Positions 3,704 to 51,094 of a stretch of 64,000 bases of DNA are shown one piece after another. Below the pieces are notes generated by a model that saw nothing but the letters and a program-made list of their open reading frames with translations, was not told the DNA's origin and ran no database searches. The position numbers and the translations under genes are program-made. Source of the stretch: Betaproteobacteria bacterium (GTDB taxonomy: Bacteria; Pseudomonadota; Gammaproteobacteria; Burkholderiales; SG8-41); NCBI GenBank assembly GCA_046339595.1, contig JBKDUF010000048.1, forward strand, positions 4,351 to 68,350, read 5' to 3'. The number at the start of each line of letters is the position of its first letter. Position 1 is the first letter of the stretch.

Positions 3704-5077
3704 ATGACTGCACAACTGCCCGCGATCACCATTGCCGAACGCCTGGCCGACCAGGCCGCCGCCATTACCGCCGACCGCCTGCCCGCCGAAGTCCGCGCGC
3801 GCGCCGAAGAACTGCTGATCGATGTGGTTGGCCTTTGTGTGGCCGCGCGCCATACCGATTACGTGAAAGCCGTGATTGCCGGCGTGGATGCCGGCGGTCC
3901 CTGCACCGCGATCGGCCACCAGCAGACGTTCTCGGCGGAAGCCGCGGCGCTGATCAACGGCACCGCAACCCATGGCGAGGATTTCGACGACACCTTTGAG
4001 GGCGGCCCGGTGCACTCGAGTACGGTGATCGGACCGGCGGTGCTGGCCGCGGCCGAGCGTTTCGGCTGTGCCGGTCCCGATGTGCTGGCGGGCTTTGTTG
4101 CCGGCGTGGAGACGCTGTGCCGGCTGTCAATGGTGATCCCGAAGGCGATCCACAAGTCGGGTTTCCATCCCACCGCGGTGCTGGGCGCGATGGGCGCAAC
4201 GCTGGCCGTGTCGCGGGCGATGCGGCTCAACAAAAAACAGACCGTGGACGCGCTGGGCATTGCCGGCAGCATGGCCAGCGGCATCATCGAATACCTCGCC
4301 GAGGGCGCCTGGACCAAACGCCTGCACGCGGGCTGGTCGGCGCAGGTCGGCATCCAGGCCGCACGGCTGGGGCAGCAGGGCTTCCTCGGACCGCGCACGG
4401 TGTTCGAGGGCACGCACGGCCTGTATTACGCCTTTGCGCGCTCGGCCGAGGGCAATTACGACGTACTGACCCGTGATTTCGGCAGGGACTGGTACCTGTC
4501 GCGCATCACCTTCAAGCCCTATGCCACGGGCACGATGAACCAGCCGTATGTGGACTGCGCGCTGCGCCTCGCCAGAAAGGGTTTCGCGGCGGAGGATGTC
4601 GCCGACATCCTGTGTGAGACCGCGGAGGGTTATGTGCACCGGTTGTGGGATCCGCTGCAGGCCAAGCAGCGCCCGGCCAATGATTACGCGGCCAAGTTCA
4701 GCGCGCCCTTCAACATCGCGGTGGCCTTTGTCACCGGCGGCGCGGGGCTCGCGGCCTTCACCGAAAAGACCGTGCGCGATGAGCGCATCCTCGCGCTGGC
4801 CGGCAAGGTGAAATACGTGGTCGATCCGAACAACCCGTATCCCAGGGCCTACACCGGCCATGTGCGGATGACGCTGAGGGATGGCCGCGTGTTTGAGGAG
4901 CGCCAGCCGCACATCCGCGGCGGCGCACAGGAGCCGCTGTCGCGTGCCGAGATCGAGCACAAGTTCCGCCTCAACGCGCAGTTCGGTGGCTGGAGCGACG
5001 CGCAGATTGCCGGTTTCCTGAAGACGGTGCCGGGGATGCTGGCCGGCAAGGTCGATCTCTCGGGCTTGCGCAGTTAA
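3704..5077 (+). CDS. MmgE/PrpD family protein (2-methylcitrate dehydratase-like)
   Basis: 457 aa with family-typical segments (LINGTATHGEDFDDT, HPTAVLGAMGA, FKPYATGTMNQP). Confidence 0.85.
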   Translation: MTAQLPAITIAERLADQAAAITADRLPAEVRARAEELLIDVVGLCVAARHTDYVKAVIAGVDAGGPCTAIGHQQTFSAEAAALINGTATHGEDFDDTFEGGPVHSSTVIGPAVLAAAERFGCAGPDVLAGFVAGVETLCRLSMVIPKAIHKSGFHPTAVLGAMGATLAVSRAMRLNKKQTVDALGIAGSMASGIIEYLAEGAWTKRLHAGWSAQVGIQAARLGQQGFLGPRTVFEGTHGLYYAFARSAEGNYDVLTRDFGRDWYLSRITFKPYATGTMNQPYVDCALRLARKGFAAEDVADILCETAEGYVHRLWDPLQAKQRPANDYAAKFSAPFNIAVAFVTGGAGLAAFTEKTVRDERILALAGKVKYVVDPNNPYPRAYTGHVRMTLRDGRVFEERQPHIRGGAQEPLSRAEIEHKFRLNAQFGGWSDAQIAGFLKTVPGMLAGKVDLSGLRS

Positions 5078-5096
5078 GGTGCCTGGATTAAATTAT

Positions 5097-5116
5097 CAAT
5101 AAAAACAAATACTTAT
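5097..5116 (+). repeat. AT-rich intergenic motif, copy A (CAATAAAAACAAATACTTAT)
   Basis: Exact 20-mer shared with copy D and, in reverse orientation, 19/20 with copy C. It lies between the prpD-like stop and the dsbA-like start, flanked by ATTAAAT direct repeats. Confidence 0.8.
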
Positions 5117-5145
5117 TAAATCAATACGATTGAGGGAGCGCCACC

Positions 5146-5793
5146 ATGGCCGAACGCCTGCAGATCGACATCGTTTCCGACGTGGTTTGACCCTGGTGCT
5201 TCATCGGCAAGCGCAAGCTGGAAGCTGCGCTGAAACAGTTCACCGAACTGTATCCCGATGATCCCGAGCCGGCCGTGCGCTGGCTGCCGTTCCAGTTGAA
5301 TCCGGGCCTGCCGCCCGAAGGCATTTCGCGCGCCGACTATATTTTCCGCAAGTTCGGCGACCGCGACAGCTCGCGCTACGACCGCGTGGCAGGCGTCGGC
5401 AAAAGCGTCGGCCTTGACATGGCTTTCGACAAAATCCAGGTGCAGCCGAACACGGTCCGCGCACACCGGCTGATCCACCATGCCGGCGAACTTGGCAGCC
5501 AGGATGCGGTGGCCGAAGCACTGTTCCGCGCCTATTTCTGCGAAGGCGCCAACCTGACCGACATCACGGTGCTGGCGCGCTATGCGGCGCAGGCTGGCCT
5601 TGACCGCGCGGCCACCGAGGCCTTTTTGCGCAGCGACGAGGGCGCGGACCTGATCCGCGCCGCGGATGCCGAGGCGCGCCAGGCCGGCATTGAGGGTGTG
5701 CCGTTTTTCATCGTCAATCGCACCATCGGATTGTCCGGAGCGCAGGACCCCGAGGTGCTGCTGCAGGCCATGCAGCAGGCCCGCGCCGCCTAA
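5146..5793 (+). CDS. DsbA/FrnE-like thiol:disulfide oxidoreductase with in-frame TGA at the redox motif (Sec candidate or nonsense-disrupted)
   Basis: ATG 5146 follows a GAGGGA Shine-Dalgarno. It reads MAERLQIDIVSDVV-TGA(5188..5190)-PWCFIGKRKLEAAL..., in frame with track ORF 5275..5793. The TGA sits where the family has the first Cys of CPWC. The downstream part is DsbA-like (EGVPFFIVN). Confidence 0.7.
5196..5230 (+). promoter_or_regulatory. candidate SECIS-like hairpins downstream of the in-frame TGA
   Basis: There are two alternative hairpins. One is GUGCUU/AAGCGC (5196..5214, loop CAUCGGC). The other is GCGC-A-AGCU/AGCU-GCGC (5211..5230, loop GGA). Their loops lie about 14-32 nt after the UGA. 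They were folded by eye only. Confidence 0.3.
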
Positions 5794-5804
5794 GTCCCGC
5801 AGCC

Positions 5805-7265
5805 ATGAGCCAATCCGCTGGATACCGCCACGCGCTAAAGGCGGGGACCACGCTCAACGAGTACCGCGTGGAGTCGGTGCTCGGCGCCGGCAGTTTCTGC
5901 ATCACCTACCTTGCGAGGGATGTCCACCTCGACAAGCCGGTGGCGATCAATGAGTATCTGCCGCGGGACCTCGCGCTGCGCGCGCTCGACGGCAGCGTGG
6001 CGCCGGTTTCCACCGCTCACCGCTTCGATTACCAGTGGGGGCTCGACCGGTTCATTCAGGAGGCGCGCGCCCTGGCACGCGTCAGCCATCCGCATATCGT
6101 GCGCGTACACCGCTATTTAGAGCTTAACGGCACCGGCTACATGGTGATGGACCATGAGCAAGGCGAGTCGCTGACCCAGTACCTGGAGCGAGTCCCGCTG
6201 CCGCCGGAAGATGAAATACGCCGACTGCTGATGCCACTGCTCGATGGCCTTGCCGCAATACACGCTGAGAACATCCTGCACCGCGATATCAAGCCCGCCA
6301 GTATTTTCATCCGCAGCGATGCGCAGCCCGTGCTGCTGGATTTTGGCGCGGCGCGCGCCGTCGGCAGCGCGACGCGCAGCCTGACCGCTGTGCTGACGCA
6401 GGGTTACGCGCCCCTCGAGCAATACTCGCCCGACGGCAAACCGGGACCATGGTCGGACCTGTATGCCCTGGCGGGGGTGCTCTTCCTCATGGTAACCGGC
6501 CGCAATCCGCCGGACGCCGTGACACGGCTGCAACTCGATACGGTGCCTGCAGCACTGCATGCTGCGCGAGGCCGCTACAGCGCGGTACTGCTGCAGACCA
6601 TCAGCCGAGGGCTGACGGTGAATGCGGGATCACGGCCACAGAGCGTGGCCGGTTGGCGCGCGTTGCTGGAACCCGCGCCAGTGCATGGCCAGGCGGGTAC
6701 TGCCCCGACCACGGCAGTTATCGGTGCGGCCTTGAAGACTGTCGTCAAGAGTCCGGCGGCAGGCGCCCAGACCACGGTGCGCACTGCGGTGTCCGTGCCC
6801 GACCACAGCGAGGCGTGGAAGCGCCTGACCCGGGCGGTTTTCTGGCTGCTCGCCATCAGCATTGGCATCAGCTGGTACGTGAAGCGCGAAACCGATCCGG
6901 CACCAGCACCCGCAATCGCTGCGCCTTCGGCGAAACGCGCGCCGGTGCAAGTCGAGGTTGTGCAGGCCCCGGCTCTCGAGGAGCTTCCGGTGTCACCTGC
7001 GATCGCAGCCCCTCCGGCTGATGTCGTGTTGGTGAAACCGGTCGAACTGTCCCAGGGGCGTGTACCCGAGCGTATGGCCAGCGAATTCCGCGGTGCAGAC
7101 CGTGACGGCGACGGTTATCTTGCGCCCGCTGAAGTGGAGGAACGTTTTCCGCTTATCGCGAAAGAACTCGCTAAAGTCGATCGCGATGGCGACGGCCTAA
7201 TTTCGATCGAAGAATTCGCTGAGTGGCGCCTTCAGCCGGTCGAACGCCGGCCGCTGCGCAAATAG
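5805..7265 (+). CDS. Hanks-type Ser/Thr protein kinase with one TM segment and a C-terminal EF-hand pair
   Basis: Kinase motifs are present (GAGSFCITYLA, HRDIKPASIF, DFGAAR, GYAPLEQ). A TM segment (AVFWLLAISIGISWYV) is followed by a Pro/Ala-rich linker and two DxDxDG loops (DRDGDGYLAPAEVEE, DRDGDGLISIEEF). Confidence 0.85.
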   Translation: MSQSAGYRHALKAGTTLNEYRVESVLGAGSFCITYLARDVHLDKPVAINEYLPRDLALRALDGSVAPVSTAHRFDYQWGLDRFIQEARALARVSHPHIVRVHRYLELNGTGYMVMDHEQGESLTQYLERVPLPPEDEIRRLLMPLLDGLAAIHAENILHRDIKPASIFIRSDAQPVLLDFGAARAVGSATRSLTAVLTQGYAPLEQYSPDGKPGPWSDLYALAGVLFLMVTGRNPPDAVTRLQLDTVPAALHAARGRYSAVLLQTISRGLTVNAGSRPQSVAGWRALLEPAPVHGQAGTAPTTAVIGAALKTVVKSPAAGAQTTVRTAVSVPDHSEAWKRLTRAVFWLLAISIGISWYVKRETDPAPAPAIAAPSAKRAPVQVEVVQAPALEELPVSPAIAAPPADVVLVKPVELSQGRVPERMASEFRGADRDGDGYLAPAEVEERFPLIAKELAKVDRDGDGLISIEEFAEWRLQPVERRPLRK

Positions 7266-21326: not shown

Positions 21327-21686
21327 ATGGGATTGCAAAGACTGCATGTCGCCGCACGCTACAGCGAGGCGGCGATTTTCAACGGCGTGGTGTACCTGGC
21401 GGGCATGGTGCCGGAGTGCGAGGCGAAGGACATCCGCAGCCAGACTGCGGACGTGCTCCAGCAGATCGACACGCGTCTTGCTGAAGCCGGCAGCCACAAG
21501 GGCCTGATCCTGCGCACGCAGATTTTTCTCGCCGACCTGCAGGACTTCGCCGGCATGAACGAAGTCTGGGACGCCTGGGTCACTCCCGGCACCGCGCCGC
21601 CGCGCGCCACCGTGCAGGCTGCACTGACCAATCCGGACTGGAAGATCGAGATCGTGGTCACCGCGGCGCAGGCGGCGATGGCCTGA
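21327..21686 (+). CDS. RidA/YjgF family protein
   Basis: 119 aa with RATVQAAL near the C-terminus, typical of the YjgF/RidA fold. Confidence 0.85.
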   Translation: MGLQRLHVAARYSEAAIFNGVVYLAGMVPECEAKDIRSQTADVLQQIDTRLAEAGSHKGLILRTQIFLADLQDFAGMNEVWDAWVTPGTAPPRATVQAALTNPDWKIEIVVTAAQAAMA

Positions 21687-22143
21687 AGGAAACGCAGGCT
21701 GTTTTTCCCGGGGCAATAATCCTCAGAAATTCACATTCAAAGACGGCTCTTTCGGCCAGTAACTGCGGCGTGTATTTGCAGTTGCGTGGTGTCAGCCTCA
21801 GGTAATGTGTCAAGGCCATGTCCGCGCGCTGCTTTTTTTATGTTCGCAGATAGGGCGCGATAGCCTTCAGCAATTCCAGGGCTTGGCGGCTGCTGAGTGC
21901 GTAGGTGTGGCTCGGTGCGTGTCTGCTGCTGTAGGCGCGTTTGGCTGTAATCTTGCCAATGCCGGTCAGATCCCTGATGAAATGGAGTAGCGTGGGCTCG
22001 GTGCTGGCTACCGACACTACCAGGCGGCGGTGCTCGCCTTTGTGCTGCGCGGTCAGTGTGATCGTTCCTTCGCCGTCGATGATGCCGGCGATATAAGCAG
22101 TCGCCCAGTCCGGAAGCTGTTTCATGCGAGTGGCATCAGCCAT
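21658..22143 (-). pseudogene. free-standing single-motif LAGLIDADG homing endonuclease gene interrupted by TAA (21838..21840)
   Basis: From ATG 22143 it reads MADATRMKQLPDWATAYIAGIIDGEGTITL...LKAIAPYLRT, then TAA. The same frame then continues open as KKQRADMALTHYLRLTPRNCKYTPQLLAERAVFECEFLRI..., ending at TGA near 21658. The total of ~161 codons is I-CreI-sized. The TAA is one substitution away from Tyr. Confidence 0.6.
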
Positions 22144-22154
22144 GGATCGAGCAT

Positions 22155-22190
22155 AAAACAAAATGGCCGCCGGACGTGAATCCGGCAGCC
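22155..22190 (-). terminator. rho-independent terminator of ssrA
   Basis: On the minus strand, GGCUGCCGGA-UUCACG-UCCGGCGGCC is followed by AUUUUGUUUU, starting 11 nt after the tmRNA CCA. Confidence 0.75.
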
Positions 22191-22217
22191 ATCGGCCAAT
22201 TGGTGGAGGCGGCGGGA

Positions 22218-22486
22218 CAGCTTGTCCATGCCTTTCGGCACGGGCTGGACTATGCCTTCATCCCGGTTGCACGGGATGCGGAGCGTGTTATCCGCTTGCG
22301 CGAATCCTAGTATCTGCCCCCCGGATGCAACCCGGTCGGCAGATCTATGAGTCTCTACAGGGCAGGCCTGAAGTTGGCCCTCTTCCTACCCCTCGGCGTT
22401 GCCATGCCGTCCTTGGCGAGACGGTGCAGGTTTCACCGATGTGAGCTCCGTTTACATTCTGCTCTTGCGAACAGACGCGACCATTG
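22218..22486 (-). mobile_element. group I intron-like insert (269 nt, no ORF) in the tmRNA T-loop
   Basis: The 5' exon ends in U and the insert ends in G. A P1-like helix CGAU/GUCG places a U:G wobble at the junction. A P4-like pairing UCGGUG/CGCCGA and a P5-like hairpin CCGUC/GACGG are present, plus several GNRA-capped hairpins (GCAA, GAAA). The segments CGGUGAAACCU, AUGGCAACGCCGAG and GUAGAGACU resemble the Azoarcus tRNA-Ile IC3 intron as I recall it. Confidence 0.75.
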
Positions 22487-22710
22487 ATCGAACCCGCGTC
22501 CGCAAGCCCTCCACAGTCAGGACTACATGCTTAGCCTGGTTGTTTGGGTTTCGCCTCGCACCCGCCAGCCGGCAGGCTGATGTTTGGCTAGTCGCTTCGA
22601 CGGATCCGCAGGATTAAGCGACCAAACCCTGCAGAGAGGCTGATGTGAATGACGTTGCACCCCTTTCGGGGCCTGACCCATCAGCAGATCAGTGCAACGT
22701 CTAGCCGGTG

Positions 22711-22743
22711 TTAGGCGGCTAGAGAATAACGCTCGTCGTTGGC
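22711..22743 (-). other. tmRNA tag reading frame (ANDERYSLAA, then stop)
   Basis: Read directly from the minus strand. It resembles proteobacterial ANDE..ALAA degradation tags. Confidence 0.8.
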
Positions 22744-22886
22744 GTGTATAGATTTCCAGCGGATTTACAAGGTGACTGGACCTTGGCATGCCCTGTGCTG
22801 CTTTGTGACCCACGTCGAAACCAGGTCGCCCCCAATCTGACGCTTCGACATTATCGCACGGCAGGGGTTCCCTGCCGGATCGAGTG

Positions 22887-23693
22887 TCAGAGACGGCGGT
22901 TCTGCTGCTTGCGCACGGCAATCCGGGAGGACGGGCGCTGCGGGGCCGGTTTTTCGGCCAGGCTCTGGGCGGTTTCGCGTTGGGCGCGCAGCATGTTGGC
23001 AACATCCTGATGCAGCGTAGCCGGCAGATCGAGGCTGGCCAGCCGGTTCATCCGCGACCGGTAGTCGGGCAGGGTATGCAGCCCGAGCATGTAAGTGAGC
23101 AGGTCGTCCGTGGTCGGGGTCGCACCCGTGGTGCGCAGGAAATCGCGCGGGAAACTCGCGCTGACACCATTGGGCGAGGGAAACAGCAGGCGGATCACGA
23201 AATCGCCGCAACTGAGGCAGAAGGGTTGGTCGGGCTCGCGAAAAACGCAATATGGGGTTTCGCTGTCGACCCAGATTGCCACCCGGCGCACGAGATCCTG
23301 GCGCAGTGCCTGCATTTCCCGGGCGGTGCGGAAAGGACGCACGCCATGCAGGTGTTCCACCCGGTAGAGTGTGCCGCCGGCTTCGATCGCGCCCAACTTG
23401 ATGAAAGGGCTGACCATCACGCCAGCGCCGGGGAAGGACCAGGCAATGCGCTGATCTTCCATCTCGATGCCCACCTGGTCTTCGAGCGTGCCATCCGGGT
23501 AGGTGATCACGAAGTAATGCACATAGCCGGCCTGTCCACGGCCCGTGTTGCTGACTGCCAGCGGGCCTGCCGCGCGGTCTGCGGTGGCGTAGATCCTGGA
23601 GCCCGGTTTATGCGGCGCGGCTGCTGCGAGTGCAGGCAGCAGCGCGATCAGTGCGGCTGCAAGCAGGCCGGAAAACTGGGCAAGGTTTGGCAT
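22887..23693 (-). CDS. hypothetical secreted protein
   Basis: ATG 23693 gives a signal peptide (MPNLAQFSGLLAAALIALLPALAAAAP). It is ~268 aa and no family was recognised. Confidence 0.55.
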   Translation of the reverse strand: MPNLAQFSGLLAAALIALLPALAAAAPHKPGSRIYATADRAAGPLAVSNTGRGQAGYVHYFVITYPDGTLEDQVGIEMEDQRIAWSFPGAGVMVSPFIKLGAIEAGGTLYRVEHLHGVRPFRTAREMQALRQDLVRRVAIWVDSETPYCVFREPDQPFCLSCGDFVIRLLFPSPNGVSASFPRDFLRTTGATPTTDDLLTYMLGLHTLPDYRSRMNRLASLDLPATLHQDVANMLRAQRETAQSLAEKPAPQRPSSRIAVRKQQNRRL

Positions 23694-23800
23694 GAAATCG
23701 GGCAGGGAAGGCTGACAGCAAGCAGCTCGGGGAGATGCCCAACTGTAGCGTGCTTGAAAATATCCTGAAAATAACAATTTATGCATTAATAATCAATTGG

Positions 23801-50456: not shown

Positions 50457-50549
50457 GGAGAGATGGCCGAGTGGTCGAAGGCGCGCCCCTGCTAAGGGCG
50501 TATGGGGACAAAATCTCCATCGAGGGTTCGAATCCCTCTCTCTCCGCCA
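50457..50549 (+). tRNA. tRNA-Ser (anticodon GCU)
   Basis: GGAGAGA/UCUCUCC acceptor stem, anticodon loop CTGCTAA, a long variable arm, GGTTCGAATCC T-arm and CCA. Confidence 0.95.
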
Positions 50550-50686: not shown

Positions 50687-50774
50687 GCCTGTAACACGAC
50701 GGGGCAATCTGCAAGACCCTGCAGATCGGCTCGACCCCGTAGGCATCCCGGTAGCGGTCTATGTAAGCCTTCAA
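50687..50774 (-). pseudogene. IS3-family transposase OrfB, 5' fragment only
   Basis: Reads [30 protein letters not shown] and then unrelated sequence. The DDE domain is absent. Confidence 0.7.
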
Positions 50775-51094
50775 GACTTGAGTCGGCGGTCGAGCTCCGC
50801 CTGGGCAAAAAACGCGCTGGCCGTCTTGAGGATCTCGTTGGCCCGACGCAGTTCCTTGACCTCGCGTTCCAATGCCTTGATGCGCTCTCGCTCGCTGGTG
50901 GTCAGACCATCACGCTGGCCGCTGTCGACCTCATCAAGCTTGACCCATTCCAGCAAGGTCTGGGGCACGCAGCCGATCTTGGGCGCAATGGATTCAACGG
51001 CAGCCCACAGAGATGGATACTCGCCCCGGTGCTCCTGCACCAGGCGCACCGCACGCTCACGGACCTCGGGGGAAAACTTGTTCGTCTTGTTCAT
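50771..51094 (-). CDS. IS3-family transposase OrfA (HTH)
   Basis: [52 protein letters not shown]..., followed by a leucine-zipper-like tail. Confidence 0.9.

Follow-up and report, generated by a model that had tools for sequence, protein, structure and literature searches.

The transfer-messenger RNA (tmRNA) gene, ssrA, on the minus strand of a 64-kilobase (64-kb) stretch of contig JBKDUF010000048.1, referred to here at its full length as the window, is interrupted in its T-loop by a group I intron, and a gene of the LAGLIDADG homing-endonuclease family lies just beyond its 3' end. With high confidence, the locus as a whole is best explained as a functional-looking ssrA of the Burkholderiales type, in the known intron form, with an adjacent endonuclease gene that was recently inactivated. 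The endonuclease gene is outside the intron, on the same strand as ssrA, and the original prediction made for this DNA did not mention it. The window intron itself is a further member of a catalogued gene form and adds little to it; the LAGLIDADG gene that recurs outside ssrA promises more as a lead. The locus is composed of the following features.

22201-22833, minus strand: tmRNA gene of the intron form, standard one-piece order (exon 1, intron, exon 2)
22833-22487, minus strand: exon 1, 347 nucleotides (nt), with the acceptor 5' strand GGGGGCG, the tag open reading frame (ORF) and the pseudoknots, as well as the T-arm's 5' half (GCGGG-UUCGAU)
22711..22743, minus strand: tag frame, GCC AAC GAC GAG CGT TAT TCT CTA GCC GCC TAA, read as ANDERYSLAA and a stop
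22486-22218, minus strand: insert of 269 nt without any ORF inside, at T-loop position 7, after nucleotide 6
22217-22201, minus strand: exon 2, 17 nt, with U-CCCGC (T-loop nucleotide 7 and the 3' T-stem), CGCCUCC (acceptor 3' strand) and ACCA
22193-22162, minus strand: terminator-like GC-rich hairpin followed by UUGUUUU, found by a terminator scan, separating ssrA from the endonuclease gene
21658-22143, minus strand: single-motif LAGLIDADG homing-endonuclease gene, free-standing, a pseudogene; its ATG is at 22143, 57 nt past the CCA end

As read directly from the sequence, the 5' end GGGGGCG of the tmRNA lies at 22833 and its 3' end CCGCCUCCACCA at 22201, with G3 of the acceptor stem paired with the U of CGCCUCC. 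The last nucleotide of exon 1 is the U at 22487, and that of the insert is the G at 22218. The Rfam tmRNA model RF00023 matched 22825..22485 of the minus strand with 139.2 bits (E=2e-54; gathering score 47). Its alignment ends in the T-loop after GCGGGUUCGAU, and the 3' strands of the T-stem and the acceptor stem are not covered. With ARAGORN, neither the window nor the unspliced locus gave a tmRNA. Once 22218..22486 had been deleted, it returned a tmRNA of 364 nt with the tag ANDERYSLAA and its stop at positions 91-123 of the spliced RNA, and with a complete 3' tRNA-like domain ending in ...gcgggttcgattcccgccgcctccacca. The removal of the insert rebuilds a T-loop of 7 nt, UUCGAUU, on a T-stem of 5 bp, the interrupted site lying between UUCGAU and the final U. 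The gene thus has the G3:U acceptor stem, the T-arm, the CCA end, the tag ORF with its resume alanine codon and the pseudoknots of a tmRNA, along with the hallmarks of the intron form, namely a T-loop interrupted between a -1 U and a terminal G, and a canonical arm that is rebuilt by excision. The minus-strand tmRNA of the original prediction, with its tag and its G3:U stem, is hence borne out by the covariance model, by ARAGORN on the spliced sequence and by direct reading. The sequence statements that this prediction made about the gene are all correct.

Two other gene structures were considered and set aside. A permuted tmRNA, suggested by a match to RF04321 (37.5 bits, below the gathering score), is a cross-match, as the gene order here is the standard one. 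An intron long enough to hold the endonuclease gene was ruled out, since there is no second 3' exon downstream of that gene; a search of the window with up to 3 mismatches allowed gave no second copy of the 3' exon at all.

The exons that splicing would join are found uninterrupted in relatives. Syntenic contigs were fetched via the conserved protein encoded at 22887-23786, and in five of them (L201; L203, from GCA_001464815.1; and L206-L208) ssrA is uninterrupted and gives a tmRNA of 365 nt with the tag ANDERYSLAA or ANDERYALAA, the former also being present in the intron-less L203 and L206-L208. The conserved upstream protein in these five contigs is 64-82% identical to that of the window. 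RF00023 scores the uninterrupted alleles at 198-200 bits, compared with 139 in the window. L201 and L203 read GCGGGTTCGATTCCCGCCGCCTCCACCA, which is exactly the sequence predicted for the ligated exons, with the junction of GGGTTCGAT and TCCCGCC. The claim that excision of 22218..22486 restores the T-arm and a tmRNA of 364 nt is therefore upheld both by ARAGORN and by the identity to these two alleles, and the intron-less alleles that the original prediction proposed to look for among relatives do exist. The endonuclease gene is absent from all five syntenic intron-less relatives. On the intron-bearing side, the sister contig L200 matches the window at 98% identity along 1301 nt. Between the two, exon 1 has no change in 347 nt, and the variation falls in the intron and the endonuclease gene. 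The locus is an intron presence/absence polymorphism among relatives, and its exons are strongly constrained.

Directly after the uninterrupted ssrA, L201 carries an AbiEi/AbiEii pair (4033-5579) and L203 carries phage-like genes (Peptidase_M15_3; 3869-5873), in both cases in DNA unrelated to that of the window. Such contents are typical of islands integrated at tmRNA genes.

The intron was folded by hand and the fold was then checked on homologues, because the result with the Rfam group I model RF00028, given below, was marginal. In the intron numbering, position i corresponds to window position 22487 - i. The elements of the fold, on the minus strand, are listed here.

22490-22487 with 22481-22478: P1, exon CGAU with GUCG (intron 6-9), with U·G at the 5' splice site
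22475-22458: P2 (intron 12-18/23-29), loop GCAA
22450-22445 with 22284-22279: P3 (intron 37-42/203-208)
22439-22359: P4-P6 domain, with P4 (intron 48-53/89-94, UCGGUG/CGCCGA), P5 and P5a
Intron 95-128: P6, P6a (100-102/121-123) and P6b (105-108/114-117)
22355-22350 with 22251-22247: P7 (intron 132,134-137/236-240), A133 bulged
22290..22344: P7.1 (with the inner P7.1a) and P7.2 (intron 143-175 and 182-197), P7.2 loop GCAA
22276-22261: P8 (intron 211-226)
22246-22219: P9.0 (intron 241-243/266-268) and P9 (244-261), loop GAAA
22218: terminal G (omega-G), intron 269

Homologues were collected by scanning species-representative genomes for the pattern GGGTTCGAT, 115-145 nt, AGAGACT, 117-147 nt and TCCCGCC. 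The same insert was found at the same site in at least 119 of these genomes. Among the matches listed, the nearest loci are metagenome-assembled genomes labelled beta proteobacterium or Burkholderiales, which are about 78-84% identical over ssrA and the intron and share the synteny on the ubiG side. Together with protein hits, their labels are the basis on which the window is taken to be of Burkholderiales or betaproteobacterial type. The 119 sequences (L001-L119) and the window were aligned with MAFFT (alignment A1, 120 sequences). Across the 78 proposed pairs, 91.2% of the cells pair in a standard manner, compared with 36-45% when the partners are slid by 1-3 columns. Compensatory changes on both sides occur at 59 of the 78 pairs, and every variable helix is supported. 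The covariation score is 0.478 against 0.07-0.15 in the slid controls, and none of 500 shuffles equalled the observed values. P1 and P7 are invariant in the alignment, as is expected of the substrate helix and the guanosine-binding helix. The U·G of P1 is present in 119 of 119 sequences, and the terminal G precedes UCCCGCC in 119 of the 120 that were aligned. In addition, the minimum free energy (MFE) structure of the window intron by itself contains P2, P3, P4, P5, P5a, P6-P6b, P7.1, P7.2, P8 and P9, with an MFE z-score of -4.87 relative to 200 shuffles. An earlier drawing of P6a as a GGCC/GGCC hairpin was dropped, since the covariation in A1 gave the P6a and P6b listed above instead. The core helices P3-P9, the P4-P6 and P3-P8 domains and the P3/P7 pseudoknot are all present, and the insert is a genuine group I intron. 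A group I intron inside the T-loop was thus rightly proposed, and so were its details, since P1 (CGAU/GUCG, including the U·G), P4 (UCGGUG/CGCCGA), GNRA loops and terminal G are each conserved or covarying in the homologues.

A result that weighs on the other side comes from RF00028. This model was silent on the 64-kb window at gathering thresholds and on the 951 nt from 22000 to 22950 at E<=10. When the intron alone was searched, it gave 21.1 bits (E=0.002; gathering score 50), with an alignment that spans positions 1-253 of the model. The check by Rfam and ARAGORN that the original prediction proposed thus came out in parts: the tmRNA was found by RF00023, and by ARAGORN only after removal of the intron, and the group I hit was weak. 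The seed of RF00028 holds 12 sequences, none of them bacterial, and 20 bits serves as the working cut-off of tFind (tFind preprint). The silence of the model reflects its filters and its sensitivity and is no evidence against the intron.

A few observations accompany the homologue collection. The proteobacterial T-loop introns in A1 fall into two sequence subfamilies, for example ...CGGGGCUCACAUCGG... and ...AGAGGGCUCAU-ACGG..., which differ by compensatory changes in P2, P3, P4, P6 and P8. Chance matches of the exon-intron-exon pattern do occur, and L008 and L073 fit the intron family poorly in A1. In a viral collection the same pattern gave two matches, and the one that was read (L209, 1672-1945) is a chance match in a phage structural gene; to that extent, the scan yielded no evidence for a phage vector of the intron.

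The first description of a T-loop group I intron in a tmRNA gene is reportedly that of Williams in 2002, from Clostridium botulinum. The intron form is now one of three recognised forms of the tmRNA gene (PMC11915505). The 2025 tmRNA database lists 883 unique intron-form sequences from 21 phyla, most of them interrupted at inter-nucleotide position 7, and intron length averages 293 nt among the founding sequences (PMC11915505). In Pseudomonadota, there are 159 instances at position 7 among 176,648 tmRNA genes (PMC11915505, Supplementary Table 2). The C. botulinum intron is 287 nt long, has the P1 substrate CGAU and is reported as previously shown to self-splice (PMC2729099). The statement that tmRNA introns are very rare, with one known case, is outdated in view of the 883 catalogued sequences, and of the 119 or more species found in the scan. 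The window gene shares with the catalogued form its one-piece order, position 7, the -1 U·G in P1, the terminal G, the CGAU substrate, a length near the mean, an intron without an ORF and the P7.1 region, and its phylum is already represented. There is no essential difference in the window intron itself, which is one more betaproteobacterial example of the form. ARAGORN, and Rfam at its gathering thresholds, report no tmRNA or a partial one here, and no intron. As the standard tools miss the split gene, such genomes can be mis-scored as lacking a complete ssrA.

From these features a course of splicing can be proposed. Transcription would yield a precursor of 633 nt, in which the 269-nt ribozyme would fold into P1-P9 with the IA-type P7.1 and P7.2. 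The last exon nucleotides CGAU would pair with GUCG of the intron as P1, placing the U·G wobble at the splice site, and an exogenous guanosine held in P7 would attack after U22487. The terminal G at 22218 would then take the place of this guanosine, and the exons would be ligated as GGUUCGAU joined to UCCCGCCGCCUCCACCA (read at the RNA level, GGUUCGAU followed by UCCCGC). With the T-loop UUCGAUU and the 5-bp T-stem recreated, the acceptor stem could form and alanine charging would become possible. The structure, together with the C. botulinum relative, suggests that the intron would splice in vivo and self-splice in a GTP-dependent manner. If this is the sole ssrA copy, the mature tmRNA depends on splicing.

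Two other accounts of the interrupted gene have to be weighed. In one, it is a dead ssrA copy into which unrelated DNA was inserted, the working tmRNA being encoded elsewhere. ARAGORN is blind to the locus and RF00023 loses its 3' end, and the analysis covers the 64-kb window, so that a second, uninterrupted ssrA may be present in the rest of the genome; these points speak for a dead copy. They are countered by an insert that is bounded to the nucleotide, with the T-arm and the acceptor stem restored on its removal, and by a ribozyme fold that is supported by covariation. Moreover, exon 1 is 100% conserved relative to L200, whose neighbouring DNA varies, and the arrangement persists in well over a hundred species. 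The polymorphism of empty and filled alleles, with the constraint on the exons, argues against a dead gene as well, and this account is hardly credible. The other account concerns the origin of the intron. The original prediction took it for an IC3-type intron, on the grounds of three core strings close to the Azoarcus intron; it would then be kin of the Azoarcus and cyanobacterial tRNA introns, newly arrived in a tmRNA gene. Core strings in P4, J5/4-P4' and P7 do appear to resemble those of the Azoarcus intron. The GAAA loop of L9, and a P5 of CCUGCA...CAUGG that is close to the shape of a tetraloop receptor, may be added in its favour. IC3 introns such as that of Azoarcus are not known to have P7.1 and P7.2. 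In the window, the RF00028 alignment opens an insertion of 63 nt between the P7 5' strand and P3', and this stretch forms two hairpins, P7.1 and P7.2, with changes on both sides at 11 of 11 and 6 of 6 pairs, respectively. These extra helices are a criterion of subgroup IA (PMC3984707). Their covariation between P7 and P3' marks an IA-type periphery and leaves the IC3 assignment unsupported. In addition, the established tmRNA intron lineage has the same insertion site and the same P1 substrate, CGAU, and the shared core strings are general features of group I introns. An IC3 origin is thus improbable. The C. botulinum tmRNA intron was reportedly classed as IA3 by Williams (2002).

The comparison with well-studied introns runs along the same lines. 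The introns of phage T4 td and phage Twort, of subgroup IA, likewise have P7.1 and P7.2 between P7 and P3' and a compact core with P2, P9 and P9.0; they reside in phage protein genes, whereas the host here is a stable RNA gene. The Azoarcus pre-tRNA-Ile intron is also a small bacterial intron in a tRNA-like RNA, with peripheral contacts in the style of GNRA loop and receptor, but it interrupts the anticodon loop instead of the T-loop, lacks P7.1/P7.2 and has another P1 substrate.

The gene that follows ssrA encodes a protein with the single motif YIAGIIDGEG, in which the acidic residue is retained. It matches Pfam LAGLIDADG_3 (PF14528) with E=1.4e-4 and 22.5 bits, which equals the cut-off of that family, and a sequence search of the PDB placed it in the I-MsoI/I-CreI family (I-MsoI, E=7e-7). 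It has the motif and the single domain of these enzymes, and its frame is not intact. After 101 codons there is an in-frame TAA (21840-21838), where the intact aligned homologues have a tyrosine (TAT in L200), and an invariant glycine of the TPRNGKY motif is changed to cysteine. Past the stop, the frame is open and conserved as far as a TGA at 21660-21658, which overlaps the 3' end of a convergent RidA gene. The copy in L200 is an intact ORF of 155 amino acids (aa; P0001), and intact relatives mostly have about 140-170 aa. Since L200 has TAT at this position and an intact gene, the window copy is a very recent pseudogene. With I-CreI and I-MsoI it shares the one LAGLIDADG motif, the acidic residue and the sequence match to I-MsoI. 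Those two enzymes, however, are encoded inside organellar rRNA introns, whereas the window gene is free-standing beside a bacterial tmRNA gene and truncated by a stop.

The association of this gene with the intron was counted from both sides. In the intron-centred count, there were at least 119 intron-bearing loci, of which 116 were parsed and 100 had enough flank to be assessed. An endonuclease gene in the same place was intact-like at 34 of these 100 loci and disrupted or partial at another 22. The intact-like copies share the strand of the tmRNA gene and begin about 20-140 nt past its CCA end. In the endonuclease-centred scan of metagenomes, the best 80 of 458 confirmed loci were taken and the intron was located by an nhmmer profile; the intron and the 17-nt exon lay directly upstream on the same strand at 71 of 77 informative loci (~92%). 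Compared with the base rate of the intron form in the phylum, which is ~0.1%, the association is far beyond chance. A GC-rich hairpin of the terminator type stands between the CCA end and the endonuclease start in nearly all related loci. When exon, intron and endonuclease distances were compared over 69 loci, nearest neighbours agreed, with a median rank of 2. The published survey counted endonuclease genes inside introns only (36 of 883, 4.1%), and the region downstream of the tmRNA gene is unmentioned in it (PMC11915505). A full-text search of a limited literature set found no published description of an intron with a downstream endonuclease gene in this arrangement.

Joint spread of the intron and its neighbouring endonuclease gene into empty alleles of ssrA is tentatively proposed, at somewhat less than even chances, as the best-supported reading. 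The enzyme would cut the pseudo-palindromic T-arm DNA of an empty ssrA at or near the intron site, and repair would copy in the intron, the 17-nt exon and the endonuclease gene as a block. The intron and the gene are no further apart than the 17-nt exon plus a short spacer, so both would be copied in one repair tract. A homodimeric single-motif enzyme would suit the naturally pseudo-palindromic T-arm DNA; activity and target are both predicted. The endonuclease gene would then decay, and the fresh nonsense mutation of the window is what may be expected of a late stage of the homing cycle. The coexistence of intact, broken and missing copies, with this mutation, fits such a decay phase. A composite mobile unit in many Proteobacteria, made of an intron with no ORF, the 17-nt 3' exon, the terminator of ssrA and the free-standing LAGLIDADG gene, may accordingly exist, and the case for it falls just short of an even one.

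In collaborative homing, an ORF-less intron is mobilised by an adjacent free-standing endonuclease that cuts the intron site, as described for cyanophage psbA/F-CphI and for T4-type phages (PMC3984707). The anatomy at the window is of this kind, with an ORF-less intron and a free-standing endonuclease gene adjoining the interrupted gene. The co-occurrence far above chance and the absence of both elements from empty alleles are further points of likeness. The known cases are from phages, whereas here the setting is a bacterial chromosome, the host a stable RNA gene, the enzyme a LAGLIDADG protein and the cleavage site a predicted one; intron and endonuclease gene are set apart by no more than the 17-nt exon and a terminator.

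Several observations weigh against joint mobility. No trace of the endonuclease was found at 44 of the 100 assessable intron-bearing loci. The overall correlation of distances over the 69 loci is weak (Spearman 0.13-0.20), and the split of the introns into two subfamilies is not mirrored in the endonuclease sequences. In L160, L161 (identical to each other) and L163, from other phyla, the endonuclease gene is convergent to intron-less tmRNA genes, so the family can also live at the 3' flank of ssrA without an intron. The remaining three of the six exceptions depart from the rule in other ways. The endonuclease gene of L153 is convergent to an intron-form gene. In L189 (2000-2500) the 17-nt exon lies upstream; before it comes an AT-rich insert, unrecognised by the intron profile, that may be a divergent intron. 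The homologue in L140 has no tmRNA within 2.5 kb. In a rival reading, the LAGLIDADG gene is an independent selfish gene that homes to the 3' flank of ssrA, a frequent neighbour of the intron and no partner in its mobility. The homologues of L160, L161, L163, L153 and L140, the weak congruence of intron and endonuclease phylogenies at depth and the terminator that separates the gene from ssrA would all be in keeping with it. It has to contend with the intron at ~92% of the informative endonuclease loci against a base rate of ~0.1%, with a 17-nt exon and spacer so short that a tract copying one element almost always copies the other, and with the lack of both elements in the syntenic intron-less relatives; it is regarded as unlikely, though a serious contender. 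A trans-acting maturase required for splicing, like the LAGLIDADG maturases of fungal mitochondria, is a further reading of the same protein. The second-best PDB match is indeed a LAGLIDADG 'mRNA maturase' (2ab5, E=0.001), and the gene is tightly linked to the intron. Yet in the window the intron core is intact beside a gene that has become a pseudogene. Of the 100 intron-bearing loci, 22 have a disrupted copy and 44 have none, and the related intron of C. botulinum is reported as previously shown to self-splice (PMC2729099). A maturase role is therefore very improbable.

Some further observations concern the neighbourhood and the divergent loci. The tmRNA genes beside the endonuclease homologues of L160 (2501-3547), L161 (176-1222) and L163 (196-1002) have the tags AKNKSTGGVASPYFGERSFAFAYA and ANKVAFAPAYA, and in L160 and L161 a gap of 248 nt contains short stretches, in both orientations, that look like tmRNA 3' ends. 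Directly upstream of the window ssrA, 22887-23786 (minus strand) encodes a conserved hypothetical protein with no Pfam match; it is 299 aa as called, with a start that is probably too early, as homologues have 260-290 aa. Contigs of the Burkholderiales type have this protein in synteny, with a HAD hydrolase/ubiG cluster on one side of it and ssrA on the other. Far from the locus, an ALIL pseudoknot (RF01497, full-length, 112 bits) lies at 50700-50816 on the minus strand, about 150 nt downstream of a tRNA-Ser gene (50457-50549, plus strand). This is a frameshift element of the IS3 family of insertion sequences (IS), and an IS copy is probably present there.

If the joint spread of intron and endonuclease gene is true, collaborative homing would have a chromosomal example that is widespread. 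Joint spread would also explain why only ~4% of tmRNA introns encode an endonuclease, the gene being outside the intron, where the survey did not look. Hundreds of natural snapshots of the homing cycle would then be at hand: empty alleles, introns with an intact endonuclease gene, introns with a decaying one and introns alone. The pathway from a free-standing endonuclease to a mobile intron would be directly testable, in a gene with a tiny 3' exon, and a family of small homodimeric LAGLIDADG enzymes with a probably very conserved target would be added to those known.

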